Origin: Escherichia phage vB_EcoS_MM-2
Sequence record: PV577658
DNA: 64,000 nt
Strand: one strand, 5' to 3'
Positions 9,150-64,000 of the stretch are shown here, piece by piece (position 1 is the first letter of the stretch; each line of letters opens with the position of its first letter). Below the pieces are notes generated by a model. It was not told the origin of the DNA. It ran no database searches and saw only the letters and a list, made by a program, of their open reading frames with translations. A program made the position numbers and the translations under genes.

Positions 9150-9446
9150 ATGACCAAAGCTGAAATTATCGCACAATGTGAAAAATTTGGTGAGTTTTAT
9201 CTTCATTACGAGAAACTTCGTCAGAAAGGAACCACGTATCTTCAGGGTACGATGGAATTTGATCCAGCCCAAGATAAATATCTAGCTGAGCGTATTAAAC
9301 GTGAACGTATTCGTAAAGCGAAAGATGATGAGATCCTTGTCTTCTCTCGTACTAATGATAGCTTCCGTTTTATTCCTGTCGAAAAAGTCCGTCGTGTGAC
9401 TAGCCTCCAATCAGAGTTAGATCGTGCTTCTCCAGTAGGCCGATAA
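9150..9446 (+). CDS. hypothetical protein
   Basis: Track ORF followed by a terminator hairpin. Confidence 0.4.
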   Translation: MTKAEIIAQCEKFGEFYLHYEKLRQKGTTYLQGTMEFDPAQDKYLAERIKRERIRKAKDDEILVFSRTNDSFRFIPVEKVRRVTSLQSELDRASPVGR

Positions 9447-9456
9447 GAAACCAATT

Positions 9457-9478
9457 AGCCCCTATATGGGGCTTTTTG
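9457..9478 (+). terminator. rho-independent terminator
   Basis: agcccc-tatat-ggggct hairpin followed by ttttgtg. Confidence 0.6.
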
Positions 9479-9496
9479 TGTATTTGGGATATGTAA

Positions 9497-9805
9497 ATGA
9501 GCGAACAGGTAAATCAAAACTATGAAGGACACGTTGATGACCAGTCCATCATACTTTGGGAGAAGGAGGGAGAACAAGTAAGATTAACAGTATCTGAATT
9601 TCGTGGGAATCTATACATGGGTATTCGTTACTGGCTTCTTGATATTAATGATGAGTGGTTTCCAACGAAATCTGGCTTCTCTTTTCCTTACACCCTAGAA
9701 ACAACATCACAGCTTTTCTATGCGTTTACACAGATTCTTAGCGAATCTGAGGTTTTACATGAAGTACAGAAACGAGCTGAAGAACTCAAAGCCAAGAATG
9801 CCTAG
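9497..9805 (+). CDS. hypothetical protein
   Basis: Track ORF; stop codon lies in the loop of the following terminator hairpin. Confidence 0.4.
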   Translation: MSEQVNQNYEGHVDDQSIILWEKEGEQVRLTVSEFRGNLYMGIRYWLLDINDEWFPTKSGFSFPYTLETTSQLFYAFTQILSESEVLHEVQKRAEELKAKNA

Positions 9806-9818
9806 TTCTTGGCTTTTT
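9791..9818 (+). terminator. rho-independent terminator
   Basis: gccaagaa-tgcctag-ttcttggc (8-bp stem) followed by tttttcttt. Confidence 0.6.
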
Positions 9819-9832
9819 CTTTATAAATGTAC

Positions 9833-9880
9833 TTGCTTTCAACTCAGTTTTGTTATATAATATTTATATAAATTAATGAG
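9833..9880 (+). promoter_or_regulatory. early promoter (TTGCTT-17-TATAAT)
   Basis: ttgctt..tataat then atttatataaattaatgagag downstream box. Confidence 0.55.
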
Positions 9881-9891
9881 AGGGTTGCAAA

Positions 9892-10164
9892 GTGAAAAAG
9901 ATAAGTATAAGTACACTTAAACCTTTCCCGTACATCGGACAGCCTCTTATACTTATGTGGGAGGAGAAGATTAATGGGGAAAAGTATACTAAAACTAGAA
10001 GTGGGTATAAGCTGACTTCACTTCATTACGAAAAAGAAGTATTAGTAGCTGAAATATACTCTCCGTTGTCAGATAGGCTAGTAAAAACTACATATTTGCA
10101 TCGTTGCAAAAATTATACATGGCACGGATCCACTAGACAACCCTCATACTGTGAGGCAGAATAA
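9892..10164 (+). CDS. hypothetical protein (GTG start)
   Basis: Track ORF beginning at gtgaaaaag. Confidence 0.35.
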   Translation: MKKISISTLKPFPYIGQPLILMWEEKINGEKYTKTRSGYKLTSLHYEKEVLVAEIYSPLSDRLVKTTYLHRCKNYTWHGSTRQPSYCEAE

Positions 10165-26896: not shown

Positions 26897-29665
26897 CTAT
26901 GAGTTATCTGGCTTAATAAGCTCGCTAACAAGTTTCTTCAGTTCGGTTAATTCTTGCTCAAGTTTGTTAACTTTATCAGCTTGATAACGAAATGCGCAAG
27001 CTAGGTCTGCCATAATGACGTTGTTATCAAGCGCTAATGTGTCATCTGCTTTGTCAACAACAATTTGACGATCTACATATTCTTCACCTTCATCGTTAAC
27101 ACCTACAACATCTGCAAAAATATCACCTCCCGGGATTAATTTTACGTATTCGGGATCTATTTTTAGCAGGTCTTGGGCTATTAAGCCGAATCGTTGGATA
27201 TCGCTACCGTTGTATTTAAACATCGTTGGCAACCACTGCATAACTCGGTCATAGCTTTCTTTTCCATCTGTATAAATTATATCGTGCTTTAAATCTCTGT
27301 CAGAGTTAGCGGCCTTTTGAAAAATGAAATTTCCACTTGATGACCATGTGGTTATATCGTTTGAGGCTGGCTGAAACTGGAAGTTACAGAAAAAATTACC
27401 ATCACCACGAAGTCTTAGCGAGCAAAAAGGCCAAGCATTATTTCCCTGTGGGATAAGTCCCCAAGTTGCGCGAATTGGATAACCACCAGTGGATTGTGTA
27501 CCCCATGAAAGGCCAGGTGCCCATCCACCATCATTGTTAGCAATAGTCTCACCCCAAACAAGAGCATTACCCCAATAGTTAGGAGCATCCCATCCCATTT
27601 GTTGGGTTTTGCCAGTGTATTGAGCAGAATGCGTTCTGCCGTCAGGGTAAAACTTGTGCATATAGGACCGTATCCCTGCTTGATACAACTCTATTCCAAA
27701 AGATTCAACGTGTGTGTCGCCTCTTCTGATTAAACCAGCGATAGCGTAATCGTCATACCAGTTGTAACGACTTACACCAGTCCATGTGTTTATTGGTGGA
27801 TTCATGATTGAAAATAGTTGTGACGCATTGCGTTCATTCCCATCTGCATAAATACCAGCCCCAGGAGCTAAGGAAATACTTTTCGCTCCTGAAAAAGTAC
27901 CATTTTCATTAAACTGATAATACTGTGATGCCCCATTATGAAATACGCCTATTGTATGCTTTCCTACGCCTACTTGAGTCTCAAAATAAGACTGAGAAGA
28001 ACCAATATCTTCGCCTTGTGTATTCTTTAATTTTGAATGATATATACCTGCATTTGCAGTAGTTGCATTTTCCGTTTCGTTTTCAACATTAAGACTTAGG
28101 AACTTTGGTGCATGTTTCTCACCAAGCCCTATATTATTTCTGATACCATTCGCATCCTTAGCACCTGTACCACCAAATTGAATACCTAGTGGTAGCCATT
28201 GATTGGTTGTAGCATCATAAACGCCCCAATGATCCCCACCATCTGGAATGGTTAGATACTTGTTTTTATTTGGAGAATATAAAATTGTTTCACCAGAATT
28301 CTGAAACAGCCTATCAACTCCTAAATTATATCTAGCACCTTCAGGAGTATCTGCTCCTGTACCACCAGCCGCAGTTGATAATGGAAGAGTTTCCCATGAT
28401 ATTCCATCACCTTTTGTATCTCTCTGAAGTACAATAAGACCATCATCTCTAATAACAAATCTATATAATCTATTATGTGAATATAGAAAAGTATGAACCC
28501 CATCTTGTACAAGTGAGTCTATAAGGAGTGTCTGACGAGAAGCATTGATATTTGACAGATCTGAGAGATTATTTTCTTTTAGTAACGATTTACTAATGAT
28601 ACCTTCAGCTTTTCCAGCAGCTACTTCCGCACGCCCAGCGTCTGTAGATGCACTTTGTGCGCTACCAGCAGCATTGCTAGCTTGTTGTCCTGCTTCGGTA
28701 GCGCTATTACTTGCTTGTGCAGCCGAGGCTGCAGCAGCATCTTTTAGCACTGTAGTTTCCGTTACCGCACTATCCTTAATACCTTGTGTGTCTGTTTTTA
28801 ATTGCTCAACATCAGATTTTAAAGCCGTTGTTTCACCTATAGTGCTGTCTTTAATTAGTTGAGTATCTGTTTTTAATTGCTCAACATCTGATTTTAAGCC
28901 TTGAATAGTAGTTACTGATTGGTTAGCTGAGGCTGCGGAATGGGCTGCATTAGTCTCACTAGTTTTTGCATTGGTTTCACTAGTTTTTGCATTGGCTTCA
29001 CTAGCTTTTGCATTAGTTTCCGAGGTTTTTGCAGCGGATGCTGATGCGGCGGCTTGTGCAGAGAATATTTCTGCCCCATCTCTATAGCCTTTAGAATCCG
29101 AAGCAGAAGCAGCAGCATTAGTTTCACTAGCCTTTGCCTTATCTTCACTAGTCTTTGCTGCAATAGCAGAAGCAGCAGCATTAGTTTCACTAGCCTTTGC
29201 CTTATCTTCGCTAGCCTTTGCATTAGTCTCACTAGTTTTTGCGTTAGTCTCACTAGTTTTTGCATTAGTTTCACTAGCCTTTGCCTTATCTTCGCTAGTT
29301 TTAGCATTAGTCTCAGATATTTTAGCTGCAGCTGCTGATTCCTCCGATTTAGTAGCTGATGCAGCAGATTGAGTAGCAGATGTAGCGGACTGAGTGGCAG
29401 AGGCTTCAGAAGCTCCAGCAGAAATAGCAGCTTCCTGTTCAGAGTTCTTAGCATTAAGCTCCGAAGTTTTAGCCGCTATCTCAGAATCTTTTGCAGCTGC
29501 AGCAGACTTAGCTGCAGCCTCAATAGAAGATACTAACTCACTTGCAGTAATAGAGCTAATAGAATTACCTAGAGTTACTGTATATCTAGGAAACTTACTA
29601 GCAGTAGCTTTAGTATCATCAATATTTAATATTTGTTGTACAATAATTTTAGTAGTTACTGCCAT
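26897..29665 (-). CDS. ltf: L-shaped tail fibre protein with C-terminal intramolecular chaperone (S74-like) domain
   Basis: C-terminal DLKHDIIYTDGKESYDRVMQWLP...LIAQDLLKIDPEYVKLIP chaperone-like domain; internal TSETNAK heptad repeats. Confidence 0.75.
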   Translation of the reverse strand: MAVTTKIIVQQILNIDDTKATASKFPRYTVTLGNSISSITASELVSSIEAAAKSAAAAKDSEIAAKTSELNAKNSEQEAAISAGASEASATQSATSATQSAASATKSEESAAAAKISETNAKTSEDKAKASETNAKTSETNAKTSETNAKASEDKAKASETNAAASAIAAKTSEDKAKASETNAAASASDSKGYRDGAEIFSAQAAASASAAKTSETNAKASEANAKTSETNAKTSETNAAHSAASANQSVTTIQGLKSDVEQLKTDTQLIKDSTIGETTALKSDVEQLKTDTQGIKDSAVTETTVLKDAAAASAAQASNSATEAGQQASNAAGSAQSASTDAGRAEVAAGKAEGIISKSLLKENNLSDLSNINASRQTLLIDSLVQDGVHTFLYSHNRLYRFVIRDDGLIVLQRDTKGDGISWETLPLSTAAGGTGADTPEGARYNLGVDRLFQNSGETILYSPNKNKYLTIPDGGDHWGVYDATTNQWLPLGIQFGGTGAKDANGIRNNIGLGEKHAPKFLSLNVENETENATTANAGIYHSKLKNTQGEDIGSSQSYFETQVGVGKHTIGVFHNGASQYYQFNENGTFSGAKSISLAPGAGIYADGNERNASQLFSIMNPPINTWTGVSRYNWYDDYAIAGLIRRGDTHVESFGIELYQAGIRSYMHKFYPDGRTHSAQYTGKTQQMGWDAPNYWGNALVWGETIANNDGGWAPGLSWGTQSTGGYPIRATWGLIPQGNNAWPFCSLRLRGDGNFFCNFQFQPASNDITTWSSSGNFIFQKAANSDRDLKHDIIYTDGKESYDRVMQWLPTMFKYNGSDIQRFGLIAQDLLKIDPEYVKLIPGGDIFADVVGVNDEGEEYVDRQIVVDKADDTLALDNNVIMADLACAFRYQADKVNKLEQELTELKKLVSELIKPDNS
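28945..29320. repeat. tandem 21-bp repeats inside the tail-fibre gene
   Basis: About 14 copies of gcattagt(t/c)tcactag(t/c)(t/c)ttt in two blocks, encoding T-S-E-T-N-A-K heptads. Confidence 0.8.
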
Positions 29666-52839: not shown

Positions 52840-52967
52840 ATGTCAAATAAAAGAAAGAACAGACGCGGAGAAGTGTACGAAGCGTGGATTAATATTTACG
52901 GATTTGGTTTTGTATTATTCCTAATCTTCGTAGGTTTTTGGTTAGCAGCTATGGCGGGGTGGATTTA
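52840..52967 (+). CDS. small membrane peptide (~42 aa), first of a coupled array
   Basis: Hand-translated: MSNKRKNRRGEVYEAWINIYGFGFVLFLIFVGFWLAAMAGWI; AGGAG RBS; stop overlaps next start (TAATG). Confidence 0.4.
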
Positions 52968-53123
52968 ATGGAATGGGTAATTATTGGCATATTCGTCTTA
53001 TTGATACTTCTCTTTGTAGGCTTACGTGTAATAGATACCTCTGTAACCCAAACAGAAATTAAATTAATGCAGTTGAGTAATAGATTATCTAGAATTGAAA
53101 CTTTATTAGAGGAGCGTAAATAA
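52938..53123 (+). CDS. small single-pass membrane protein (likely start at MEW, ~52968)
   Basis: MEWVIIGIFVLLILLFVGL hydrophobic helix then RIETLLEERK. Confidence 0.45.
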   Translation: MVSSYGGVDLMEWVIIGIFVLLILLFVGLRVIDTSVTQTEIKLMQLSNRLSRIETLLEERK

Positions 53124-53230
53124 TGGAATGGGTAATTATTGCACTACTGGGGATTGTGATTATTGGGCAATGTATTTTAGATAATTATTTAGCTAGAATT
53201 GAAACCTTACTATCGGAGAAACGTAAATGA
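53123..53230 (+). CDS. small single-pass membrane peptide (~35 aa), paralog of the previous gene
   Basis: Hand-translated: MEWVIIALLGIVIIGQCILDNYLARIETLLSEKRK. Confidence 0.4.
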   Translation: MEWVIIALLGIVIIGQCILDNYLARIETLLSEKRK

Positions 53231-53421
53231 TGGAAGTGGGAATTACACTAATAGTAATATTAGTCTGGGTAATCCTCATTGTCTCTCGTATAGTGTATCT
53301 CCGCCTAAAAACTCTAGAAGCTCAGGTGAAACAACAACAAGTTATTCTAGAAAAGTTAGTACTACTGCAACGTTGTGATAGCACCCGTATTCTGCAAATT
53401 GAGAGGGAATTAGATGTTTAG
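53227..53421 (+). CDS. small single-pass membrane protein
   Basis: MMEVGITLIVILVWVILIVSRIV hydrophobic helix then coiled-coil-like tail; ATGA overlap with upstream gene. Confidence 0.45.
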   Translation: MMEVGITLIVILVWVILIVSRIVYLRLKTLEAQVKQQQVILEKLVLLQRCDSTRILQIERELDV

Positions 53422-53659
53422 TATTGTAATTGCTTTTATTATCGGGATACTTGCGGGAGTTTTCGGGACAACTGCGGCAATCAACAAGCATCGTAAATAT
53501 ATTGCGGAAGTATCGCGGGAGATTGCGGAAAGGGAGCGGAAGTTTGACGAGAAACGTGCGGAGTTTGAGCGGGAGTGGTCGGACGGATCTCGGGCGTCGC
53601 GGAAGAGATTCCGTGAGTTCAGACCAGAACACAGGTTTGATGACCATTCTATGCGCTAA
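53414..53659 (+). CDS. small single-pass membrane protein with highly charged C-terminal tail
   Basis: MFSIVIAFIIGILAGVFGTTAA helix then Arg/Glu-rich tail. Confidence 0.45.
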   Translation: MFSIVIAFIIGILAGVFGTTAAINKHRKYIAEVSREIAERERKFDEKRAEFEREWSDGSRASRKRFREFRPEHRFDDHSMR

Positions 53660-53770
53660 TTTGACTTTTGCCAAATTTCATAAGATTACACATGGAGGTG
53701 TGTCCAGTGGGTCGGGGGAGAATACTTAGTCTGCTAACCGCCACCCCCCGTTACTATTATCATGGTAATT

Positions 53771-53807
53771 GTTTCACCCTGCAATTAAAATGGTTGCAGG
53801 GTGAAAC
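53771..53807. terminator. bidirectional terminator hairpin (perfect 14-bp stem)
   Basis: gtttcaccctgcaa-ttaaaatgg-ttgcagggtgaaac between the plus-strand peptide array and the minus-strand dmp-like gene. Confidence 0.7.
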
Positions 53808-53824
53808 AATTTCAACTTTAATTA

Positions 53825-54601
53825 TTACGCAACTTTTAATTTCTCGATATATTGTTGCGGGCTGCAACTATATTCTGCGCGTTCTTCCTCGGTCATACCT
53901 TCCCAACATAATTTCAAACGATCAGCTAGGAATTGATAATCATTATCATCATCGAGGGATTCATCAATAAAGGTTTCACCTATCAATGCCACGCCGATTG
54001 ATAGAATATCGTTAACGGCTTGCGCGTCCAGCGTTTTAAATCCGTATGATGCCGCCGCTGATAGTACACCCTTATGATCATCAATCATTGTAAAATCAGC
54101 GTTCGGATATAACTGTTTAAATAATTCAAAATAATAAGATTTATAAACTGCGTCTTTGCTGTGGTATATCTCGCTAACTTTATCAGCCTCAAAATATTTA
54201 TGCAGTGTATCGCGAGAAAACACGCGGATATTACTATCACCACGACCGCGCAAGCCTTGTTTGCGCAAATAATAATAGTCCGACTTGCTCATTAGTCGAG
54301 CGGTACAAATAATGTTTAAAGTATTTGCGTCATTCATGCACTGGCGCATATATGTAACAAGGGGCAATAAAGTATCTTGCATTATTAAATCATGTTTGCA
54401 GGCTTCATTTTTATACTTATTTAAATCTAAATTGCCCTCGCTATCAAAGCAAGGCGCTACACGATGGAAAGAATTAATGATAGTGCCGTCCAGATCCCAA
54501 ATCATGACGCGGGAAATATGCGGGAAATTACGGGTAATATTCATTTTAACTTGATTCATTTTGTTACGTTCTCCATTAAAGGGATTTAGTTTATCCAGCA
54601 T
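53825..54601 (-). CDS. dmp: HAD-family 5'-deoxyribonucleotidase-like protein (T5 dmp-like)
   Basis: HAD motif I MIWDLDGTI; first gene of a minus-strand operon with A1/A2-like genes; likely internal start giving ~244 aa. Confidence 0.55.
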   Translation of the reverse strand: MLDKLNPFNGERNKMNQVKMNITRNFPHISRVMIWDLDGTIINSFHRVAPCFDSEGNLDLNKYKNEACKHDLIMQDTLLPLVTYMRQCMNDANTLNIICTARLMSKSDYYYLRKQGLRGRGDSNIRVFSRDTLHKYFEADKVSEIYHSKDAVYKSYYFELFKQLYPNADFTMIDDHKGVLSAAASYGFKTLDAQAVNDILSIGVALIGETFIDESLDDDNDYQFLADRLKLCWEGMTEEERAEYSCSPQQYIEKLKVA

Positions 54602-54639
54602 TACCCGCTATTTATAAGCGGGTAATAATAAATCAACTA

Positions 54640-55032
54640 TTAAAGACCATAAGCCAACGCATCAGCGATAAAACTAACATCCTCACCGGATACGCTAGAA
54701 CGAATCCCCGCGCAGGTGTATACCTTTGCGCTCGCTAGCTGATCATCAAGGCAAGCGGGGCAAGGCGCGACAACTGCAAAGGCTAGACCAGATTTTACCG
54801 CGTCAATAATGATTGTTTCTTGTTTCATCGTGTCAACATAAACGCCTTTTGCTTTAATATGGCTGGTTAGTTTGCCTTGCGTATAGGCAAAGGTAGTAAC
54901 CTGTAAAGCGTCATTGAAATCTAATAATTCATCAATAACGTGCCCCGCCTCGACGTGGTAACGTTCACCATTAGAATAAACCAGAACAATGGAAGACTGA
55001 GCGCGATCGAATGGAATATTTTGCTTTTTCAT
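54640..55032 (-). CDS. small Cys/His-containing protein, possibly deaminase-like zinc-binding
   Basis: HVEAGH ... PCPAC motifs, but spacing (~70 aa) is longer than in canonical cytidine deaminases. Confidence 0.3.
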   Translation of the reverse strand: MKKQNIPFDRAQSSIVLVYSNGERYHVEAGHVIDELLDFNDALQVTTFAYTQGKLTSHIKAKGVYVDTMKQETIIIDAVKSGLAFAVVAPCPACLDDQLASAKVYTCAGIRSSVSGEDVSFIADALAYGL

Positions 55033-55071
55033 ACTTATAAAACTCCAATTAGTTTAATATAGGGATTTAAT

Positions 55072-55362
55072 TTATTTGATAATAATCTGCATCTGGTACG
55101 GCGTTAATTCACCGTTTACGGGTAAATTATTATCGCTTAGCCACTCATAAAAAGCGCCATCATCATCAAAAGGAACAACATCATTATCACGATAATCGAT
55201 GGAAATAATGCCATCCGTATTAGTTTTGGCGGCTAGGATAGGCCCAAAGCTGTAAACTTTATCGGATTCCATTTCATCCGGTGAGATGAATGCTTTTTCG
55301 TCCAATGTTTTGGGTAATGTAACTTTCATTTTTTGACTCCTGTAATAGCGGCTATATTTCAA
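55072..55362 (-). CDS. hypothetical pre-early protein (likely start at Met ~55329)
   Basis: Track ORF with conserved upstream translation-initiation region. Confidence 0.4.
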   Translation of the reverse strand: MKYSRYYRSQKMKVTLPKTLDEKAFISPDEMESDKVYSFGPILAAKTNTDGIISIDYRDNDVVPFDDDGAFYEWLSDNNLPVNGELTPYQMQIIIK

Positions 55363-55382
55363 GCCGCTAGGGGATAATTTAA

Positions 55383-57047
55383 TTACGCGAAAAATTTACC
55401 GTTTTTAAAGTCAATCAAAGTGCGCTGACCGTTTGCATAGGTAATTAAATGCGTTTGCGTCCAGCTTGACGCGCCAACGTTGTAACCCATATCCAGACTA
55501 CCAGCTACGCCAGCGGTATAAACGCCACCGTAAATGCTAGCGGTATGGGTGTGTCCCGTGTTTAGCTTGCCCAATTTCTTAAACTGTTTAGGATTGCCAC
55601 GACTGCCGTTAATGCCGTTGTGACCGTGTACGCCGCACTCAATGCCTGCAATCTTGAAAGATTGATCAGTGGTTAGGAAAATGGCGTTAAACTCACAACC
55701 TGCAACCTTGCGCAGCGCATAATCTAGCACGTTAAAAGTATCATCATGATCACTGATCGCCGCGTAAATTGCAGCATTCAGGCGGTGATATAGTTCGGCG
55801 TTGGCTGGATCGTCTTTGATGTTAGCATTACGATCATCTAACCAGCGGGATAGCGCCAAATCGTGATTAGATTCAACAATGATTGTTTGAGAGAAATCAC
55901 GTTCCATTGATTCCAGCACGCGCCCCGTATCGATAAGATCATCCAGAACTTTATCACGTCCAGCGGCATACTGTTTTGCTAGGAATACACCGGATGCACG
56001 GTTATGATGATTGCGCGATGTAAAATCATGCACGTCATGGATAAACTGATATTTTGGTTTAAGAATATCAAGCAAGCTATTTTCGCCAGCCCATGACGCA
56101 ACGGCACAATCATCATCTAATTTTTCCGCATGAATATCGCCATACTGCAAGCCTAAAACATGCCCCGATGTTTCATAGCATCCGGCAGGAGTAGCGCAAA
56201 CATTCAGATCATAAAACACCCCGCTTTCGTCCATTGTTTCAAGCTGGCGAACAAAAAATTCCCCGTCCTCGTCGAACTCAACAATCAGCGCGCCGAAGTT
56301 ATGCAGAGCTTCCGCTTTTTGTCCTGCTTTCTGCTGAATATAGTTTTTAAGCGTTGCCGTTCCGGTTGAATACATACGGCGCACTACTTCACCTTTTAAA
56401 GCTGGCACGCTTTCAGCGGTGATTTTAGCGTGACCAATTGCCAGCCCCTCAATATTGAGCGCCGTTGCAGTTTCTGCAAATCCTGAAAGCGGGTAATCTG
56501 CGGTTGGCAAAACATTAATTTCAGCCATGAAAGCAAAACGGCGGTTATTTAAAAACACGTTTTTGCTGCAAATATATTTATCAAATGCGGGATCGTATTT
56601 GATACCGTCTGCACCTTCTTCATTCTGGAAGCCATTTTTATTATAAATATACTTAGAAACAAGCAAATCAGCACCGATATATTCAGCGAATTTTTCCAGA
56701 CTTGCTAAAAAGTTTTTATGCGGGAAAGTATTATTTTGAATCGACGTAATAATAAAGCGTTTACCCTGTTTTACTTCCCATTGCTCAACCGTACTAGAAA
56801 CAATTCCCGCCGCTTCTGGGCGCTCATCGTTTTTAATGGCTTTTGCTACTTTTGCCGCTTTCGGTTTAGCTGGTTTATTTGCTTCCAGCCAGTCGCAGAT
56901 AGCGGTTGAATGCTTCGTTGTATCGTAGACCGCTTTTGATATATCGTCGCAGACTTCCAGTTTAGTAGCGCGCAGACGTTTACCATAGAAATTAAAGTCA
57001 GCGGCCATTTTCAGGATAACGGTTTGTTTTTCTGCGGAAATAATCAT
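55383..57047 (-). CDS. A1: A1-like pre-early protein with calcineurin-like metallophosphoesterase motifs
   Basis: 554 aa; GDIHAE and GHTHTAS metallophosphatase-type motifs; size and context match T5 A1 as I recall it. Confidence 0.6.
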   Translation of the reverse strand: MIISAEKQTVILKMAADFNFYGKRLRATKLEVCDDISKAVYDTTKHSTAICDWLEANKPAKPKAAKVAKAIKNDERPEAAGIVSSTVEQWEVKQGKRFIITSIQNNTFPHKNFLASLEKFAEYIGADLLVSKYIYNKNGFQNEEGADGIKYDPAFDKYICSKNVFLNNRRFAFMAEINVLPTADYPLSGFAETATALNIEGLAIGHAKITAESVPALKGEVVRRMYSTGTATLKNYIQQKAGQKAEALHNFGALIVEFDEDGEFFVRQLETMDESGVFYDLNVCATPAGCYETSGHVLGLQYGDIHAEKLDDDCAVASWAGENSLLDILKPKYQFIHDVHDFTSRNHHNRASGVFLAKQYAAGRDKVLDDLIDTGRVLESMERDFSQTIIVESNHDLALSRWLDDRNANIKDDPANAELYHRLNAAIYAAISDHDDTFNVLDYALRKVAGCEFNAIFLTTDQSFKIAGIECGVHGHNGINGSRGNPKQFKKLGKLNTGHTHTASIYGGVYTAGVAGSLDMGYNVGASSWTQTHLITYANGQRTLIDFKNGKFFA

Positions 57048-57137
57048 AGTAATAAAACTCCATTAAAGGGATTAGATTAATAACGGCAATATTGCCAAAT
57101 ATAACGCCTCAAATAATAGGCGTTATAATTTGCAACA

Positions 57138-57335
57138 TTAATTTAAAGGCACTAGGCTAGAACTAACACCACAAGCAACGGCAGCGATAAAACAAAGCAA
57201 GCCCAAACGTTTTGCTAATTTAGATTTACGTTTAAAATAATATGAATCTAAATCATTTTGAAAATAAGCGAACAATAACGAGGGCGCCATAATAAACAAG
57301 CCTAGAATTAATGATTCAGTAGGATAAAAGATCAT
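57138..57335 (-). CDS. small membrane protein (two predicted TM helices)
   Basis: MIFYPTESLILGLFIMAPSLLFAYF ... LGLLCFIAAVACGVSS; AGGAG RBS. Confidence 0.4.
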   Translation of the reverse strand: MIFYPTESLILGLFIMAPSLLFAYFQNDLDSYYFKRKSKLAKRLGLLCFIAAVACGVSSSLVPLN

Positions 57336-57429
57336 TTTAAAAACTCCTGATTTAAGGGAAGAAAATAACTATCGCTAAACAGTTATATTATTGCCCCCTC
57401 ACTAAAAAAAGGGGGGCAAGGTATAACTA

Positions 57430-57837
57430 TTATTCGCCTGCGGCTTGTTTTACTTCCTCGGCAACGCCTAACAATTGCGCTACTGCGTCCAGCGTTTCAA
57501 GTTTTGCACTTTCAAGGCTTGCCAGATCATCGGCATCTTTGATAATGCCGGAATCGATAGCGTGTTTTGCAATAACGCGTACATAATGAGCTTTGCGGAT
57601 TGAACTACCGCCGCCAACTTTGCGGGGCTTACCGCTTTTTTGATATGCTTTTGCGCTGGTCAATTTTGACCGAACGGATACGGGAGAAGCCGCGCCTACT
57701 GCTTTTGCAATCTCTTTCAGGCCGTCGCTATTTGCGAAATCTAAACCGTTTTCATTAATTAACTGTTGATACATGGAAACAGCTTTCTGAGTGTTTTCTT
57801 CATTCCATGCGAATTTTGCGGTTTTAGCGTTAGTCAT
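57430..57837 (-). CDS. A2: A2-like pre-early DNA-binding protein
   Basis: 135 aa (~15 kDa), basic central region; position upstream of the A1-like gene. Confidence 0.5.
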   Translation of the reverse strand: MTNAKTAKFAWNEENTQKAVSMYQQLINENGLDFANSDGLKEIAKAVGAASPVSVRSKLTSAKAYQKSGKPRKVGGGSSIRKAHYVRVIAKHAIDSGIIKDADDLASLESAKLETLDAVAQLLGVAEEVKQAAGE

Positions 57838-57933
57838 GATGTAACTCCTATTAGTTTAATTTAAGGGATTAGATTAACTTAATGTTAATCGTTATATCCC
57901 CCTGAAATAAGGGGATATAAAGTTAACACTAAT

Positions 57934-58185
57934 TTACAATACAGCTTCCCATTTTTCGTTGCGTTGAACAACCTTTACAACATCGCCGGATTTAACGCGA
58001 ACGCTAAAAACGGGCTTGCCGTTGTTACTACGTTCATTTTCAGCGTATACCGCGTCGATTGTATCGAACGGCATAAGCGCCGCACCTTTAATACGTTCGG
58101 CCTTTCCGGTTAATTCATCCGTTTTAGTAACGAAAGGAATGAAGACGAATTGACCAACTTTCGGCGCGGTAATAACGTTTTGCAT
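57934..58185 (-). CDS. hypothetical pre-early protein
   Basis: 83 aa; first gene of the minus-strand block. Confidence 0.4.
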   Translation of the reverse strand: MQNVITAPKVGQFVFIPFVTKTDELTGKAERIKGAALMPFDTIDAVYAENERSNNGKPVFSVRVKSGDVVKVVQRNEKWEAVL

Positions 58186-58415
58186 AATATAAACTCCTAG
58201 TTATTTGGGGATTGTTCCGCATTACCTGCTAGAAAGTAACAGCAGGTAATAAGTAACAATCCGCTCGCCAATATAATCAATTTTAAAGAACTCCACGTAG
58301 GCCGCTATATCCCGTTAGGGGGCGGGATGCATTATGGTAAGCACCGACCGTCAAATTTTATCAAGTTATCGCTCTTATCGAACTGGGTACATCTTAAAAC
58401 CTATCGGCTAGGTTG

Positions 58416-58619
58416 TCAAACAATTTTTTGCAATTTTTTATGATTTTCTTTTAGGTCAATCATAATATTTCGCCAGATCATTTCCAGACCTTGCTGGCGA
58501 CCTTTCTTGTACTGCGTGAATCTATATCTTACTGATCTTTGAGCTACTGTCAACAAATTTTTTGTTTTGCTATCTAGTGCCTTAATAGGCTTGCCAGTGA
58601 TCAAAAGCGTTTGTTTCAT
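58416..58619 (-). CDS. hypothetical small basic protein
   Basis: 67 aa, Lys/Arg-rich; weak RBS. Confidence 0.3.
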   Translation of the reverse strand: MKQTLLITGKPIKALDSKTKNLLTVAQRSVRYRFTQYKKGRQQGLEMIWRNIMIDLKENHKKLQKIV

Positions 58620-59066
58620 ATCGTCGATTCCTTATAATGAATAAGTTTACCGCCGATAGGCTTTAAGATGTACCCAATTTTTAAAGAGCGTGGCGGTAAA
58701 CTTCCCGCCGTGTAGTTCGTCATTGCCGCCCTACGAGATAAATAATAGGGGATTCCCGAAAATGGCGCAACCTTATTTTTGTAAAGAAATGTAAAGGTAA
58801 AACTCACCGGACACCGTGCGGCGACGGCCTAAAATTAAAAGAAACGGGCGCGCGAATACCACAAAATAAAGCAAATAGGCAAGTAATTTTTTCATTTATA
58901 TTTGCTTTGCCCTACTTGACAAAATCTAAAAAGCTCGTGGTAACGATAAACGGCTTATCCCCTTATGATGGGATGGCTAAAAACTTTATTGCGTTCTGGA
59001 GCGTTTTAGGCGCATTCTAGCCTTGTTGATAACTTATCCCCAAAAGCAAAAATGAAATTTTCCTAG

Positions 59067-59099
59067 TTATCCACTTGACTTTTATTTTCCAGTGGATAA
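59067..59099. promoter_or_regulatory. inverted pair of DnaA-box-like 9-mers around a TTGACT hexamer
   Basis: agTTATCCACTtgacttttattttccAGTGGATAAct; 11-bp perfect inverted repeat, each arm one mismatch from TTATCCACA. Confidence 0.5.
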
Positions 59100-59273
59100 C
59101 TACTTATTTTATGAAATAAATTAATTGACTTTTATTTGTTAGTATGCATCGGAAAGATAGCAGACTAATAATTGCTAGAATGATAATCATGCTGGTGGAT
59201 TGTAACGACCTGAATTATTAGCAGACTATTAATCACGGAAAAATCTCATTAGCCAACTAACTATTTCATGATA

Positions 59274-59300
59274 TATAATATACATATAAATTAATGAGAA
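59274..59300 (+). promoter_or_regulatory. promoter-like element of the early family
   Basis: tataat followed by atacatataaattaatgagaaa box; no convincing -35; no gene for ~430 bp downstream. Confidence 0.35.
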
Positions 59301-59351
59301 ATAATAACTATAAGAAATCATCTAGCTAAGTGAGAACCACTATCATTTAAG

Positions 59352-59372
59352 TTATACACAAAGTTATCCACA
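59352..59372 (+). promoter_or_regulatory. two adjacent DnaA-box-like sites
   Basis: gTTATACACAaagTTATCCACAgc: one perfect consensus 9-mer and one with a single mismatch. Confidence 0.5.
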
Positions 59373-59443
59373 GCACTTTTTGACTTGACACGATAGGCGG
59401 CGATATAAGGACTTTTACACAGACTTATCTACAGGTTATTCCA

Positions 59444-59459
59444 CTGTATAAATATACAG
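59444..59459. promoter_or_regulatory. LexA (SOS) box-like palindrome
   Basis: CTGTATAAATATACAG fits CTGT-N8-ACAG with AT-rich spacer. Confidence 0.45.
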
Positions 59460-59726
59460 GGTAAAAAGGTAGTGTTAACAACTGCAATCAATTTTAAGCG
59501 GCTTAAATCGCATTCTAACGAGCTAAACGCTGCGGGGTAATATTAAAGTAAAGCCTTAATGCGTCGCCCTGGTGGCTTCGCCGTGGTTTGCTCTTTATTG
59601 CACCGCTGCGCGGTTAGCATAAAAATAGGCGCTAGGCAAGGAAAATAAAAAGGTAAAATAATATTTGCCTATGCTAGAAATTTACCTTTATCATTCACTC
59701 ACCGATTAACGAGGGAGGCCGAACAA

Positions 59727-60506
59727 ATGAGGCTTTATAAACCTGATAATGCCACCGTTTTAAAAGGTGCATTGCGCAACCTGCTGGATGGTAGCAAGTC
59801 AACCAGCATTAAACATTTTATTAACAAGATTGAAACTATTCATCAAAACTTTTTTGATGATTATGACGCTTATGATATGGATAGTTTTCTACCCTTATAT
59901 AGACAAGGGGCAACGCTAGTTTTATATAATCGGGATTGCCATATCTTTACAGGCAGGGGAGCGGGGCCGGATACCGATTTTATTGTTGCGCAGGGTAATA
60001 ATATTGTTGCGTATCATAGCAATTCAGGCCGTCAATCATTTAATATAAATAGTTTTGAGCTTATTGGACTTGATCTGATAAATGGACTTTCTAGCATTGA
60101 GGGATTTTTAGATGTTATCTGGAAGTATTTACCCGCTGGATGGCATAAGCCGGATAACGACGGATCTCAATATACCGGTATAATGGCTTTTGATGGCGAC
60201 GGTAATTTTTTGTTACCACGGGAGCTATACCCATATATTTATGATGGGGATATAGAAAGCGCTGGTTTTTCTTTCTGGAAAGATGAAGATCAGATTATTG
60301 ACAGCGTAGAAAACCATGCTGTAAATTCTAACACTCAAAGCGTTAACACTCAAACTACTGAAAACAAAGGAAAAAACACTATGACCAAGATTGCTAACAT
60401 CGTTGCCGCTAATAAATCCGCCGTTGTAAATGCTGCAAAACTGGAAGCGGGTAAAATTGCACTGACTCAAATCACGAAAGTAGCGGCTAAAAAGCACCGT
60501 TCATGA
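59727..60506 (+). CDS. hypothetical protein, 259 aa
   Basis: Track ORF with RBS GAGGGAGG; no recognisable motif. Confidence 0.45.
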   Translation: MRLYKPDNATVLKGALRNLLDGSKSTSIKHFINKIETIHQNFFDDYDAYDMDSFLPLYRQGATLVLYNRDCHIFTGRGAGPDTDFIVAQGNNIVAYHSNSGRQSFNINSFELIGLDLINGLSSIEGFLDVIWKYLPAGWHKPDNDGSQYTGIMAFDGDGNFLLPRELYPYIYDGDIESAGFSFWKDEDQIIDSVENHAVNSNTQSVNTQTTENKGKNTMTKIANIVAANKSAVVNAAKLEAGKIALTQITKVAAKKHRS

Positions 60507-60736
60507 TTAAAGGCTATATTGATACGCCGATTGGTCGAGTAGTGATTGCTAACCTGCTAAGTGTAGCGGTTGACCAGTACGCACCGACTAACCAGAAAGC
60601 GAAAGCGGTAGCAGGGGCGGCTATGGAAGCGGCAATGCTGGAAATGGTGCAAAGTTTTAACATCGCTGAAATGATTGATGAAATGGTGAAAGGTATTGAT
60701 ATTTCTACTTTTACCACTAGCACCGAAATCGAGTAA
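60503..60736 (+). CDS. hypothetical protein
   Basis: Track ORF, ATGA overlap with upstream gene. Confidence 0.4.
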   Translation: MIKGYIDTPIGRVVIANLLSVAVDQYAPTNQKAKAVAGAAMEAAMLEMVQSFNIAEMIDEMVKGIDISTFTTSTEIE

Positions 60737-60801
60737 TAATATTTAGTGGGGATTATTTCCCCACTTTACTACTCCCTTGTTAATTAATAGGAGGCTAACT
60801 A

Positions 60802-61296
60802 ATGGCTGAGGAAAAATACGGCTTCTCGCTAGGAGAAGTGAGCACGGCTAAACATGATATGATCATTTTAGTCGATTGTCATACTGGCTATTGCGGAGAA
60901 GGGAACACCGAAGAATACTTTGTTCCTGCTGGTACGGATCTGGACGCTTTCGCTCATGAAATGGCTATTGATAATGCTTCTCGTTTTGGTAGCGATGGCT
61001 ATGAAGACGAAGAAACTGGCGAATGGTATGAAAATGAAAACGTATATGCAAGCCTTTATCATTATCAGCTAAGTAAATCCGGCACATATGTAAACGGCGG
61101 CGATCCTATTAATTCCGTCATGAAATTAATTATTAAATATGGTGGCGTCGAGATAATTGATAACAAAGCGGTAATATACGCAAACCGATTAAAACAGCTT
61201 GTTTATATTCCTGATAGTACCCGATGGGATGAATACGCTGTTTTGCATGACGAATTGAAACGATGTTTCAATATTGAATCCCTGCAAGTAGTCTAA
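60802..61296 (+). CDS. hypothetical acidic protein
   Basis: Track ORF with RBS AGGAGG. Confidence 0.45.
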   Translation: MAEEKYGFSLGEVSTAKHDMIILVDCHTGYCGEGNTEEYFVPAGTDLDAFAHEMAIDNASRFGSDGYEDEETGEWYENENVYASLYHYQLSKSGTYVNGGDPINSVMKLIIKYGGVEIIDNKAVIYANRLKQLVYIPDSTRWDEYAVLHDELKRCFNIESLQVV

Positions 61297-61323
61297 TGTA
61301 AAGTTTTGTAAAGGTCGCCTTTT

Positions 61324-61632
61324 ATGGTGGCCTTTTTTGTTATAATGCTTTTACACCAAAACGGTGGATTGAAAATTTTCCCAAAAATTTGGAGGCTTAA
61401 AATGGTTGCTTATTCTTCTGCTAGTCATCTGTTTACCGCGCAAGGCTGGGTATCTAATCGTGCTGTCATCTATGAAATGGTGCAGGAGTTCGGCATTGCT
61501 AAAACTTATAATACCATTCAGGAACTATATAACGCCGATAAAATCGATCAGCAAACGGCTGGCTTTTTACTGGATACCCTGAAAGCTGAACATTGCACTA
61601 AAAAACAAGCCGCTAAAATTGTTTTAATGTAA
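61324..61632 (+). CDS. hypothetical protein (likely start at Met ~61402)
   Basis: GGAGG RBS precedes the internal Met; followed by hairpin cggggcg..cgccccg. Confidence 0.4.
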   Translation: MVAFFVIMLLHQNGGLKIFPKIWRLKMVAYSSASHLFTAQGWVSNRAVIYEMVQEFGIAKTYNTIQELYNADKIDQQTAGFLLDTLKAEHCTKKQAAKIVLM

Positions 61633-61681
61633 TTAATAACGGGGCGTTACTTTCGCCCCGATAACTAGGAGGCTATCACAA

Positions 61682-61832
61682 ATGGTTATTTTTCGATCTA
61701 TTTTAGCGGGTATCTTGGGCGCTATTTTATCGTTATTTGCGATAGCTTTCGGCGTTCACGCTGTTATTATTGGCGCTGGCATTGCTGCGTTTTCTTATCT
61801 GCTGGGCTGCATGACTAGTAAAGGAGAATAAA
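61682..61832 (+). CDS. small membrane peptide (~50 aa)
   Basis: Hand-translated: MVIFRSILAGILGAILSLFAIAFGVHAVIIGAGIAAFSYLLGCMTSKGE; AGGAGG RBS. Confidence 0.35.
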
Positions 61833-61833
61833 A

Positions 61834-62046
61834 ATGATCCGCAACGTTTCCCTTGCACGTTCGAAAGGCTTTAAGCTGGTGGATGTTAACACGTTCGAGT
61901 GGGAAGATTGTAAAATCGAATATGTAGCACGTAACAAAAATGCCTTTCGTGTTACCGAGAAAAAATTTGATAAGCGCGGCAACGTGATAGCTGAAACAGT
62001 TAAACATTTTGCCACCTTTTACGCTGCTTTCCGTGGGGTATTATGA
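61834..62046 (+). CDS. hypothetical protein
   Basis: Track ORF. Confidence 0.4.
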   Translation: MIRNVSLARSKGFKLVDVNTFEWEDCKIEYVARNKNAFRVTEKKFDKRGNVIAETVKHFATFYAAFRGVL

Positions 62047-62146
62047 TTCAGCAAATTAAAACGGCTTTTCGTTTTTGGGGCGTCCTGCCTTCAATTGGTT
62101 TTATTCTGATAATTATTAGTCAGCTAATGATCATCGGCGGAACTAT

Positions 62147-62506
62147 TTGGGAGCTATGCAAATGATAATTTATGAAGGCAATCGCTTTGTTGCTAATTGC
62201 CGTCCGGCATTATTAGCAAACTATTTAAACCAGCTTTCCCCAGCTTATAAGGGCGTTATTAATATTTATGAGGGAAAGGCGCATTATAAAATTAATGCGG
62301 TCGTTGCCCGTGAACTAGCATTTCAATTTTTGACCTTTGCATCTTGTGACGTTCAGGTTATGGGTGAGGCATTAATCGCGGAAAATGAAGAGGATTTTAT
62401 TAATATTTTCCGTAAGGTATGCACTGAGCGCTTGATAATGAAAGGCGCGTATATTCAATCAACTGCGGAAAGTATTGAAACAGCATTTCGAAAGGTGGCG
62501 CAATGA
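62147..62506 (+). CDS. hypothetical protein
   Basis: Track ORF. Confidence 0.4.
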   Translation: MGAMQMIIYEGNRFVANCRPALLANYLNQLSPAYKGVINIYEGKAHYKINAVVARELAFQFLTFASCDVQVMGEALIAENEEDFINIFRKVCTERLIMKGAYIQSTAESIETAFRKVAQ

Positions 62507-62606
62507 GATTATATATTTTCGTTGGTAATGTTAAGGCAGCTAATGATTCCGCTGGTGGCGACAACGTTCGCCACCATTGGCAAAAATATATTTACTAGGA
62601 GTTATT

Positions 62607-62711
62607 ATGTCTGGTTTAATGTTTACCTTATTAGTAGTTTATAGCATAATTACGGCAGGAATAGTAACTTATGTTACTAGTAAAATTTGGCCGGGAATAT
62701 ATGGTAATTTT
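62607..62711 (+). CDS. small membrane peptide (~34 aa)
   Basis: Hand-translated: MSGLMFTLLVVYSIITAGIVTYVTSKIWPGIYGNF; RBS AGGAG. Confidence 0.3.
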
Positions 62712-62729
62712 TAATAACGGAGCGTTATT

Positions 62730-62933
62730 ATGAGCAATAAAATTATTGTAACCAAAATCAGTACAATGGTTGATGTTTTTTACGTGCCAGATACGCCGGA
62801 GAATCGGCAAGCGGTCGAGCGGGGCGAATATGATAAAGTGATTTATGATCACGATGGTTATTATCAGTATTTGGTGGATTCCTACGGGGAGGAGGAGAAG
62901 ATCACGCATCGACTACCGGAGGAGGGTTTATGA
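62730..62933 (+). CDS. hypothetical acidic protein
   Basis: Track ORF with RBS ACGGAG. Confidence 0.4.
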   Translation: MSNKIIVTKISTMVDVFYVPDTPENRQAVERGEYDKVIYDHDGYYQYLVDSYGEEEKITHRLPEEGL

Positions 62934-63083
62934 AACGATGGTTTAATCACTGGTACAAGCGGTTTTTAGTACGCCGTCGCAAGTCTAGGCATCAAGATGA
63001 GTGGCGGGAGTGGGCAAAGCGTAACGGTTGCCCGCTACTATAATAATCACGGGGCGCAACTATCGGGAAGTGCCCCCAATTCT

Positions 63084-63106
63084 CAAATGAGAATCATTCT
63101 CATTTG
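63084..63106. repeat. perfect 11-bp-arm palindrome caaatgagaat-c-attctcatttg
   Basis: Core aatgagaatcattctcatt recurs at ~63474 (imperfect) and ~63581 (perfect). Confidence 0.7.
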
Positions 63107-63299
63107 ACCGCGCCCGCGATGGTTAGCCTGCTAATGATTAGGGTGTTACGTGTCGCCTTGTGTGATCGTTAGCGAGCTAACTAATTTTCAAGCCTCCTCC
63201 AATTTTGCCCTTGTTTTAGTATCTCCACCAAAATTAAACGCGTTAGAATGCGATCTAGGACGTTTTAACGCTATATTAGAATTATTCACTGCGTAGGAA

Positions 63300-63319
63300 T
63301 ACTGTATATTTATACAGTA
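63300..63319. promoter_or_regulatory. LexA (SOS) box-like palindrome, 19/20 match to consensus
   Basis: TACTGTATATTTATACAGTA versus TACTGTATATATATACAGTA. Confidence 0.5.
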
Positions 63320-63399
63320 GGATAAGCTGTGATAAGTCTGTTAATAACACCCCAAAATGGCTAGGATTCTGTCAAGTCAAATCGTGCTGTTAATAAGTC

Positions 63400-63408
63400 T
63401 GTGGATAA
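63400..63408 (-). promoter_or_regulatory. DnaA-box-like site (perfect 9-mer on minus strand)
   Basis: tgtggataa is the reverse complement of TTATCCACA; flanked by repeated gataagtctgt. Confidence 0.45.
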
Positions 63409-63426
63409 CTTAAATAATAGTGTTTC

Positions 63427-63600
63427 TCACTTCCGTTCTTAAATACGAATCACTATCATTTGCGTTCCACTTTCTAAATGAGAATCATTCTGCTTTTTAA
63501 AGGAGAATCGTTTCACTTCCTGAATAATTCTCACTTCCATTCTTAAATGCGAATTATTATCATTCTCATTCCGCTTTTTAAATGAGAATCATTCTCATTA
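63427..63600. repeat. two ~70-100 bp imperfect direct repeats carrying the aatgagaatcattctcatt palindrome
   Basis: ctcacttccgttcttaaatacgaatcactatcatt... and ctcacttccattcttaaatgcgaattattatcatt..., each ending in the palindrome core. Confidence 0.65.
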
Positions 63601-63639
63601 TCATTCGCATTCAGGCGAGCAGGGCAATTGCCCTGCGCT

Positions 63640-63760
63640 TTTGTGCAAATCCGACATTGCTCCACGGGTGTTACGTGCGGGCGTGTATGTGCGAATCCCT
63701 GTGGGGTATGTGCAAATCCGACACGGTTTTTCTAGGATTAAGATGTGCGAATCCGACAAG
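63640..63760. repeat. four iteron-like copies of ATGTGC(A/G)AATCC(GACA)
   Basis: tgtgcaaatccgaca, tgtgcgaatccctgt, tgtgcaaatccgaca, tgtgcgaatccgaca at ~20-35 bp spacing. Confidence 0.65.
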
Positions 63761-63770
63761 ATTTTTGTGA

Positions 63771-63960
63771 CTTCGATTGGAGGGTGTGTGATTGTGTGAG
63801 TTTGGGGAGAAGTTGAGAGAGCGAGAAAAATTTGAGGGAACTGCGGGAGGGGCGCATGTTTGGTGCGGAGCACCTGATTTGCGGGGATTTTGGGGAAGAG
63901 TTGAGAAGATTTGGGTTAATTTGAGATTAGTGCAGAAAAAGTAAAATTTTATTAGCTAAA
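63771..63960 (+). other. polypurine, C-depleted tract with repeated (t)ttgag(a/g) motifs
   Basis: Almost no C on the plus strand; gttgagagag, tttgaggg, gttgagaag, tttgagattag; no credible ORF. Confidence 0.5.
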
Positions 63961-64000
63961 TGGAGCAAAATAGCTTGACAAGTGAAAATTCTTGTGGCTC

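Follow-up and report, generated by a model that had tools for sequence, protein, structure and literature searches.

At the left copy of the T5 terminal repeat, first-step transfer comes to a halt once ~8% of the genome has entered, and A1 and A2 are both required for resumption. How this injection stops and restarts has been a question since the 1960s, and a single repeat block is the sole candidate cis element. The T5 block was reportedly described by Heusterspreute in 1987, Wang in 2005 and Davison in 2015. Known as Repeat Region 3, it is untranslated and contains the injection stop signal (iss) together with a 7.9% nick (Davison 2020). The same study compared the region across 25 T5-like phages, stressed its paired DnaA boxes and proposed DnaA as a binder of the block; it also relates that the whole T5 genome can be ejected in vitro via FhuA without host cytoplasmic proteins, with pauses that correlate with the nicks (Davison 2020). 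Papers from 2023–2026 give the same account of the iss block and call the stop mechanism "poorly understood".

By its sequence, the repeat block at positions 63060–63770 of the window (the whole 64,000-nt stretch of Escherichia phage vB_EcoS_MM-2 analysed here) is a Tequintavirus Repeat Region 3 of T5 type, in its right-hand copy. Alignment and BLAST place it collinear with the T5 region (AY587007.1, 9194–10409), with 85% collinear identity between T5 9238–10139 and the window (BLAST). A database search with 62900–64000 matched 450 phage records, all T5-like; the top match, at 99%, was Escherichia phage vB_EcoS_MM-1, within its annotated terminal repeat. The block sits at the inner (right) end of the right terminal repeat, after an ORF that ends at ~63044, and the unique genome's right end, with receptor-binding protein and terminase, lies left of 53701. 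The T5 iss occupies the same place, at the inner end of a ~10-kb direct repeat and following the last pre-early ORF. The T5 repeats palD, IRD′, DRB, IRC′, DRC, DRE, palJ, DRD and DRA follow collinearly, DRD4 and DRD5 being absent. Every repeat element noticed in the original prediction maps to a named T5 feature, namely the DRC palindromes, DRE1/2, the DnaA-box pairs in IRD′–spacer–IRC′ and the DRD iterons, and its suggestion of an "injection-stop region" is borne out by the collinearity with the T5 iss. The iss role itself belongs to the left copy; the window holds the right copy, the last to enter the cell, and the sequence is common to both.

The same prediction expected a physical genome end close by, and this proved correct. 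T5 10139, the last base of the T5 terminal repeat, aligns to window 64000, and T5, MM-1, Sepoy and Sw2 all have their repeat end at this base, the ends of the last two having been determined with PhageTerm. The right terminal repeat annotated in MM-1 (PV577657.1, 107633–118039) corresponds to window 53702–64000. The junction reads ...TTGACAAGTGAAAATTCYTGTGGMTC/TAAAAACTCAGGC, with the window stopping exactly at the break (slash), so that 63060–63770 lies 230–940 bp from the right terminus. The block is already known: it is genuine and conserved, and it is not new. The finding is another copy of a described region, to which the LexA, Fur and DRD-spacing leads described below add modest value. 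Coordinates are collected in Table 1.

Table 1. Features of the right terminal repeat and of the repeat block near its inner end (window coordinates; a dot in the strand column marks a feature listed without orientation).
Feature	Position	Strand	Basis
Right terminal repeat, 10.3 kb	53701–64000	+	T5 base 1 to 53701, T5 10139 to 64000 (BLAST)
Inverted partner IRC–spacer–IRD, Repeat Region 2	59328–59459 (with LexA-type box to 59461)	+	BLAST, T5 mapping
Perfect palindrome TCAAATGAGAAT-C-ATTCTCATTTGA, 12-bp arms; extra DRC-type unit	63083–63107	.	Repeat finder
palD, TACTGTATATTTATACAGTA	63300–63319	.	LexA SOS-box consensus 19/20 (putative); T5 mapping
IRD′–spacer–IRC′	63302–63431	-	T5 mapping; BLAST arm 63302–63432
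IRD′	63302–63341		Mapped from T5 annotation
DRB1 / DRB2	63327–63348 / 63387–63409		Mapped from T5 annotation
First DnaA-type pair: TTATC-ACA + TTATTAACA, GTC between	63328–63347	-	Motif search, MM-1 comparison
Second DnaA-type pair: TTATTAACA + consensus TTATCCACA, GTC between	63388–63408	-	Motif search
IRC′	63393–63431		Mapped from T5 annotation
DRE1 (63424–63491) and DRE2 (63528–63595)	63424–63595	+	Repeat finder, BLAST
DRC array, ~35-nt units, core AAATGAGAATCATTCTCATT; includes T5 palE–palI	63437–63612	.	Repeat finder, alignment, T5 mapping
DRC1–4	63437–63606		Mapped from T5 annotation
palJ, GC-rich terminator-like hairpin GCAGGGCA-ATTG-CCCTGC, then GCTTTTG	63619–63636	+	Terminator scan, T5 mapping
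Homologue of T5 major nick 1 site, CCCTGCGC	63631–63638	+	T5 annotation mapping
DRD iterons TGTGCRAATCC(GACA) at 63642, 63688, 63709, 63744	63642–63758	+	Motif search, T5 mapping
DRA2 / DRA3	63887–63925		Mapped from T5 annotation

No other 711-nt stretch of the 64-kb window has as high a density of inverted 10-mers as 63060–63770, which ranks second for direct 10-mers; its folding as single-stranded DNA surpasses that of 100 of 100 shuffles (z = −3.86). The four predicted classes of repeat are all present there above chance, as judged by sequence reading and a repeat finder across 62400–64000, with some corrections of detail. A palindrome with perfect 11-bp arms had been expected three times. 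The 15-mer AATGAGAATCATTCT does occur exactly three times (63086, 63477 and 63581; at ≤2 mismatches, 6 matches vs 0.44 expected), but the arms are 12 and 9 bp and only two copies are perfect: the one at 63083–63107, in a ~115-bp stretch that is absent from T5 (alignment gap), and the one with 9-bp arms at 63581–63599. The middle copy (63477–63495) is imperfect. The anticipated pair of imperfect direct repeats of ~70–100 bp corresponds to DRE1 and DRE2, which are 68 nt long and 87% identical with a period of 104 nt. The DnaA-box-like site said to be flanked by gataagtctgt holds a consensus box and two copies of ATAAGTCTGT, though the second copy overlaps the box; and the four iteron-like repeats are four same-strand copies of TGTGCRAATCC, the second of them truncated. 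The repeat finder further returned a 30-nt family with core AAATGAGAATCATTCTCATT at 63076, 63432, 63467, 63536 and 63571. An Rfam scan of 62500–64000 at E ≤ 1 found no known RNA, its only match being to a Brucella sRNA model at 17.8 bits (gathering score 627). The IHF consensus WATCAANNNNTTR has no site in the region and is not enriched across the window.

IRD′–spacer–IRC′ has a spacer of 51 nt, equal to that in the T5 annotation, and matches its inverted partner 3.9 kb upstream at 77% over 132 nt (BLAST); palD and the DnaA pairs together make up this 131-bp inverted repeat. The ATAAGTCTGT repeats, at 63332–63341 and 63393–63402, are parts of two DnaA-type box pairs with a fixed 3-bp (GTC) gap, and the minus strand carries the consensus box TTATCCACA at 63400–63408. 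Four further DnaA-type boxes occupy the partner at 59352, 59364, 59413 and 59425 (partner taken as 59328–59461). The T5 iss arrangement, in which IRD′–spacer–IRC′ carries box pairs with a 3-bp gap and has an inverted partner upstream, is accordingly found here with 7 of 8 boxes intact. Across the 64-kb window, DnaA boxes are not enriched (9 vs 7.1 expected).

The damaged box marks one of two differences from MM-1. Apart from two deletions, both inside 63060–63770 and without mention in the searched literature, the window reproduces the terminal 64,108 nt of that phage (PV577657.1). One removes a single G at 63330/63331 and turns the consensus DnaA box TTATCCACA into TTATC-ACA. The other removes 108 nt after 63698, between CGAATCC microhomologies, and with them two DRD copies that are present in MM-1 and T5, truncating a third. 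The 108-nt deletion is absent from the top 30 database matches, which all cover 1175 nt or more against a query of 1101 nt. The two terminal repeats of MM-1 do not differ from one another here. Provided that the source phage is viable, the lost DnaA box and the two lost DRD copies are therefore individually dispensable.

A 371-nt core (63290–63660) matches 534 phage records, from Escherichia, Salmonella, Klebsiella (Sugarlandvirus), Erwinia and Pectobacterium phages, Epseptimavirus included; in the most distant matches only palD and the first DnaA pair remain (94%). A pattern scan of IMG/VR returned mostly chance 17-mer matches, with 11 loci that are true homologues. In an alignment of 20 phages, palD, both DnaA pairs, CTTAAATAACAGTGTTTCTCACTTCC and CCCTGCGCTTTTGTGCAAATCCGACA show little or no variation, the palJ stem persists with a variable loop, and the DRC array differs in copy number, growing and shrinking by entire units. 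Indels among these relatives do not preserve a reading frame. Three ORFs tested inside 63060–63770, which in MM-1 are annotated as hypothetical proteins, belong to no PHROG family, and we treat these annotations as over-calls. The block is non-coding and holds no conserved gene.

One of the conserved elements, palD, resembles an SOS box. Scored against the 20-mer LexA consensus TACTGTATATATATACAGTA (TACTGT-(AT)4-ACAGTA), this 20-bp palindrome reaches 19/20 and would thereby class as a putative LexA SOS box. The score is 19/20 in 18 of 20 relatives and 18/20 in the other two, and in 18 of the 20 variation is confined to the central two bases. On the same scale the SOS boxes of K-12 recA (16), lexA (15 and 14), sulA (17) and umuD (18) all rank below palD. 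Besides palD, the 64-kb window holds no LexA-consensus site within 3 mismatches; a second LexA-type box (CTGT-N8-ACAG, 16/20) lies at 59442–59461 in the upstream partner. No strong promoter overlaps palD, the best promoter matches in the region being 9/12. It is plausible that palD is a LexA-type box and LexA a candidate binder. The searched literature, which took in Davison 2020 and the papers from 2023–2026 but not the accounts of 1987, 2005 and 2015, links neither LexA nor Fur with the T5 injection stop.

DH5α is a recA1 strain. A T5-like phage was isolated on DH5α, so RecA-driven LexA cleavage cannot be needed for second-step transfer if that genotype applies. We consider LexA cleavage unlikely as a timer that releases the stop.

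The DRC array is Fur-box-like. Scoring counted matches to the 19-bp consensus GATAATGATAATCATTATC. At ≥14/19 there are 12 matches in the 10.3-kb repeat, vs 0.8 in shuffles and one in the 53.7-kb unique part, and 4 of the 12 fall inside 63060–63770; at ≥13/19 those 711 bp hold 8, the best at 16/19. The matches in the DRC units overlap with a 6-bp phase and score 13–16/19, in the range of the Fur-controlled K-12 promoters fepA, fhuA, fecI, cirA, entC and entS (13–16 on the same scoring), and scores of 14–17/19 are reached in 20 of 20 relatives. By consensus match at the level of known operators, and by its overlapping hexamer arrays, the array would qualify as a set of putative Fur boxes. A DRC unit reads TGAGAAT-C-ATTCTCA, compared with TGATAAT-N-ATTATCA for Fur, and most units have GAGAAT or GCGAAT at the symmetrical positions where Fur boxes have GATAAT (T-to-G). 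The units share 13–15-nt identities, with a common core AATGAGAATCATT(AT), with the aerobactin iucA operator GATAATGAGAATCATTATT, which was confirmed to lie just 5′ of iucA on ColV-type plasmids. A weaker Fur-like box occurs at 59176 in the upstream repeat region, ~150 bp left of the inverted partner. These likenesses suggest Fur as a candidate binder.

The right flank of the block combines palJ, a nick site and the DRD iterons. TGTGCRAATCC occurs 5 times in the window vs 0.05 expected. The four DRD copies are irregularly spaced (46, 21 and 35 nt), and the copy at 63688 is truncated, without the GACA tail. In MM-1, T5, Sepoy and Sw2 the DRD cores lie at −466, −420, −394, −363, −282/−290, −257, +86 and +121 relative to the repeat end; the distances are nearly identical in the four phages, on both sides of the end, an arrangement that the searched literature does not mention. 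This fixed spacing is a candidate for how the 10-kb terminal-repeat boundary is set. The T5 annotation gives nick 1 at 7.9% and, in the right repeat, at 99.5%. A role of DRD in nick recognition was rejected, T5 nick 4 (AATTTGCCCGCGC) having no neighbouring DRD. Two records place the repeat end elsewhere than T5, MM-1, Sepoy and Sw2 do, Seafire being one of them. Its PhageTerm boundary falls at GCCCTGCG/CTTTTGTGC, breaking before C, at the position of T5 nick 1 (window 63637/63638); a nick was probably read as a terminus in that call. PhageTerm-style calls in T5-like genomes may thus fall on an internal nick rather than on the genuine repeat end.

From left to right the modules are palD, two DnaA pairs, the DRC/DRE array, the GC hairpin beside the nick site and the same-strand DRD copies. 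We propose that the modules in 63300–63612 form a cis-acting landing pad to which dimeric or oligomeric DNA-binding proteins attach, the candidates being DnaA (as proposed by Davison), LexA and Fur (from sequence likeness), or instead the phage protein A2. The bound proteins, together with the upstream partner and the nick and hairpin, would fold the incoming DNA or anchor it at the envelope, and transfer would remain stalled pending release by the pre-early proteins A1 and A2. The nick and hairpin with the DRD iterons may belong to the biology of the repeat end, that is nicking, terminus formation or packaging; for the DRD iterons, a separate function at the repeat boundary, for example in terminus formation or packaging initiation, is the more likely one. 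Taken as a whole, identity with Repeat Region 3, a cis-acting landing pad and a separate role for DRD form an explanation that we hold with good confidence.

The reading also has a more specific form. Upstream, a Fur-like box, two DnaA pairs and a LexA box follow one another across 59176–59461; in the block the order is mirrored, with a LexA box, two DnaA pairs and the Fur-like array across 63300–63612. Consensus-grade LexA, DnaA and Fur-type sites in such a layout point to specific host proteins. In this form the iss would be a mirrored pair of composite operator clusters for the abundant host proteins LexA, DnaA and Fur, which would load on the DNA that enters first and bridge the clusters into a nucleoprotein knot that arrests transfer until A1 and A2 dismantle it. 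We regard that form as quite unlikely; if true, the knot would be the long-sought host component of the T5 stop. Running against a host-factor mechanism, the Fur-like DRC units deviate from consensus, and a DnaA box and two DRD copies have been lost.

The block could instead be a packaging or terminus signal, in which DRD, perhaps with the G-rich DRA, binds the terminase small subunit or a late protein that positions the right-end cut. The conserved cut position, the conserved distances of DRD from it in four phages, the placement of all copies on one strand and the ~340-bp DRD-free gap that holds the cut fit this reading. So does the expectation that, if the left end is first into the cell, the right end is packaged first and a start site should lie here. 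Against it, no DRD copies are found near the left terminus at 53701, two copies are deleted in the window relative to MM-1, DRD1, at 466 bp from the repeat end, adjoins the nick site, and the terminase genes are ~13 kb distant; the palindromes, DnaA boxes and DRC array would also be left uncovered. As an account of the block we consider it possible but on balance doubtful. Since T5 ejection in vitro proceeds in the absence of cytoplasmic proteins and its pauses correlate with nicks, a purely DNA-structural stop is also conceivable: the nick CCCTGCG/C by palJ and the DRC palindromes would extrude hairpins or cruciforms that jam in the tail or portal channel, no host protein being required. The conserved palJ stem with its variable loop directly beside the nick site, and single-strand folding above all shuffles, are consistent with such a stop, as is the coincidence of the pauses with nick positions. 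A large share of particles, however, eject in vitro without a halt, nick-deficient T5 mutants are viable, and host-operator consensus (LexA 19/20, DnaA pairs) is kept across genera beyond what self-complementarity needs, which makes a structural stop unlikely.

The location would suit a transcription stop or insulator that separates the rightward pre-early operon from converging early genes, since the region starts directly after the last pre-early ORF and in MM-1 and T5 the genes that follow downstream lie on the opposite strand. The T5 annotation lists palC as a terminator, and palJ is the only terminator-like site found. Such sites are not enriched (1 vs 1.2 expected), and ~1 kb of conserved repeats, the DnaA pairs and a long-range partner are unnecessary for a single terminator; we judge this reading very unlikely. 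Least probable is a replication origin, which the original prediction had also raised and which the analysis does not uphold. DnaA boxes (one consensus and two near-consensus in the block, four more in the upstream partner) and four same-strand iterons are what invited it. An oriC-like DnaA cluster with AT-rich 13-mers is not what the block holds: there is one consensus box with two variants, the window shows no DnaA-box enrichment, and a search allowing 2 mismatches finds no oriC-type 13-mer within 2 kb. Nor does it resemble an iteron origin, given the irregular spacing and the absence of an adjacent initiator gene or of any conserved genes in or beside the block. The "replication origin binding protein" gene is ~56 kb upstream (about window 4074–6860, by coordinate offset), and by electron microscopy the origins of T5 map close to the middle of its genome (Davison 2020). 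An origin here is extremely improbable.

Among known systems, P1 pac has repeated hexamers that flank the terminase cut. DRD likewise consists of same-strand short repeats clustered on either side of a fixed cut, but its units are 15 nt long, lie hundreds of bp from the cut and follow no Dam-site logic. The DRC array shares with Fur operators such as that of iucA the overlapping, 6-bp-phased consensus matches and the 13–15-nt core, and differs from them in its deviating units (GAGAAT/GCGAAT) and in having no associated iron-regulated promoter. With the LexA operators of umuDC, sulA and recA, palD has in common the CTGT-N8-ACAG architecture and the AT spacer, whereas it lies, as a putative site, in the non-coding terminal repeat of a virulent phage. 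With MM-1, the window is identical across 64 kb outside 63060–63770. Compared with T5 Repeat Region 3, the window has, in place of T5 palC, ~115 bp that include an additional perfect DRC palindrome, it has four DRD copies vs six inside the T5 repeat, and one IRD′ DnaA box is destroyed, whereas Davison reports losses in IRC only. What it shares with the T5 region is the inner-end position in the terminal repeat, the IRC–spacer–IRD partner upstream and, in the same order, palD, IRD′–spacer–IRC′, DRB, DRE1/2, DRC1–4, palJ, the nick-1 site, DRD and DRA.

The DRD iterons (DRD, like palD, DRA, nick 1 and nick 4, is a name taken from the T5 annotation, AY587007) flank the end of the terminal repeat at near-identical distances in four phages of two genera (MM-1, T5, Sepoy and Sw2). 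They occupy −466 to −257 relative to the repeat end, then +86 and +121, and the ~340-bp gap between these groups holds the cut. The repeat ends of Seafire and Kenya-K20 both lie away from this conserved end. In Seafire (L123, 1826), the PhageTerm-derived end falls exactly at the T5 nick-1 site, between GCCCTGCG and the following C, and is probably a nick misread as a terminus; the annotated end of Kenya-K20 (L126, 1905) is located ~50 nt downstream of the nick-1 site, inside the DRD array. A −35-like hexamer was also observed 22 nt before the repeat end. A −10 to match it, if any, would fall across the junction with unique DNA, so that the left repeat and concatemers would be the sole places where the putative promoter is whole. 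Elsewhere, the gene for an SbcC-like exonuclease contains two tandem DRD-like 15-mers (T5 "DRD copy 11/12"); ~370 nt upstream of them lies TTTACCCGCGCC, homologous to the site of major nick 4 in T5.

Alignment with phage vB_EcoS_MM-1 (PV577657.1) disclosed two deletions as the sole differences over the whole 64 kb, both within the iss block, the T5-type Repeat Region 3. The 1-nt deletion abolishes a consensus DnaA box; the 108-nt deletion, bounded by CGAATCC microhomologies, removes two DRD iterons. The block could be a hot spot for mutation or under selection, or the deletions could stem from a difference between the assemblies.

Positions of the features discussed, in window coordinates
Feature	Position	Remark
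DRD iterons	63642-63758	
Seafire repeat end	63637/63638	
1-nt deletion	63330/63331	
108-nt deletion	after 63698	
−35-like hexamer	hexamer and junction together: 63973-64000 plus first bases beyond repeat (L001 4210-)	TTGACA
DRD-like 15-mers	24138-24167	
Nick 4 homologue	~23769-23776	
palD	63300-63319	19/20
Second candidate LexA box	59442-59461	16/20
Fur-consensus matches	53929-53953, 57878, 59176, 60964, 62847, 63083, 63549, 63578	at least 14/19
50-aa ORF	63792-63944 (+)	
10-mer repeat maximum	28500-29300	
G-rich stretch	52960-53600	
DRA repeats	63798-63926	

Judged by its sequence, palD is a candidate LexA SOS box that outscores the K-12 recA, lexA, sulA and umuD boxes against the consensus, and the score is 18-19/20 in all 20 T5-like phages examined. 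A second candidate lies in the upstream inverted partner (IRC-spacer-IRD). We found no mention of palD as a LexA box in the searchable literature. Putative Fur sites are nearly all repeat-bound, with 12 consensus matches in the terminal repeat versus 1 in the 53.7-kb unique part; the 17/19 match at 53935 is placed in the dmp gene by T5 alignment.

Within the G-rich part of the block, the 50-aa ORF has a match (E = 5.6e-32) to phrog_32079, a family of unknown function that may be made of over-called ORFs; T5 has no gene annotated at this place. The highest density of direct 10-mer repeats in the window falls, by coordinate offset, within an MM-1 gene annotated as tail fibre protein. Another repeat-filled stretch, non-coding and G-rich, is found a short way to the left of the terminal-repeat start (53701). 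It contains GCGGGAG/GCGGAAG units and 37-nt repeats with a 104-nt period, and recalls the DRA repeats, likewise G-rich, on the left side of the repeat end.
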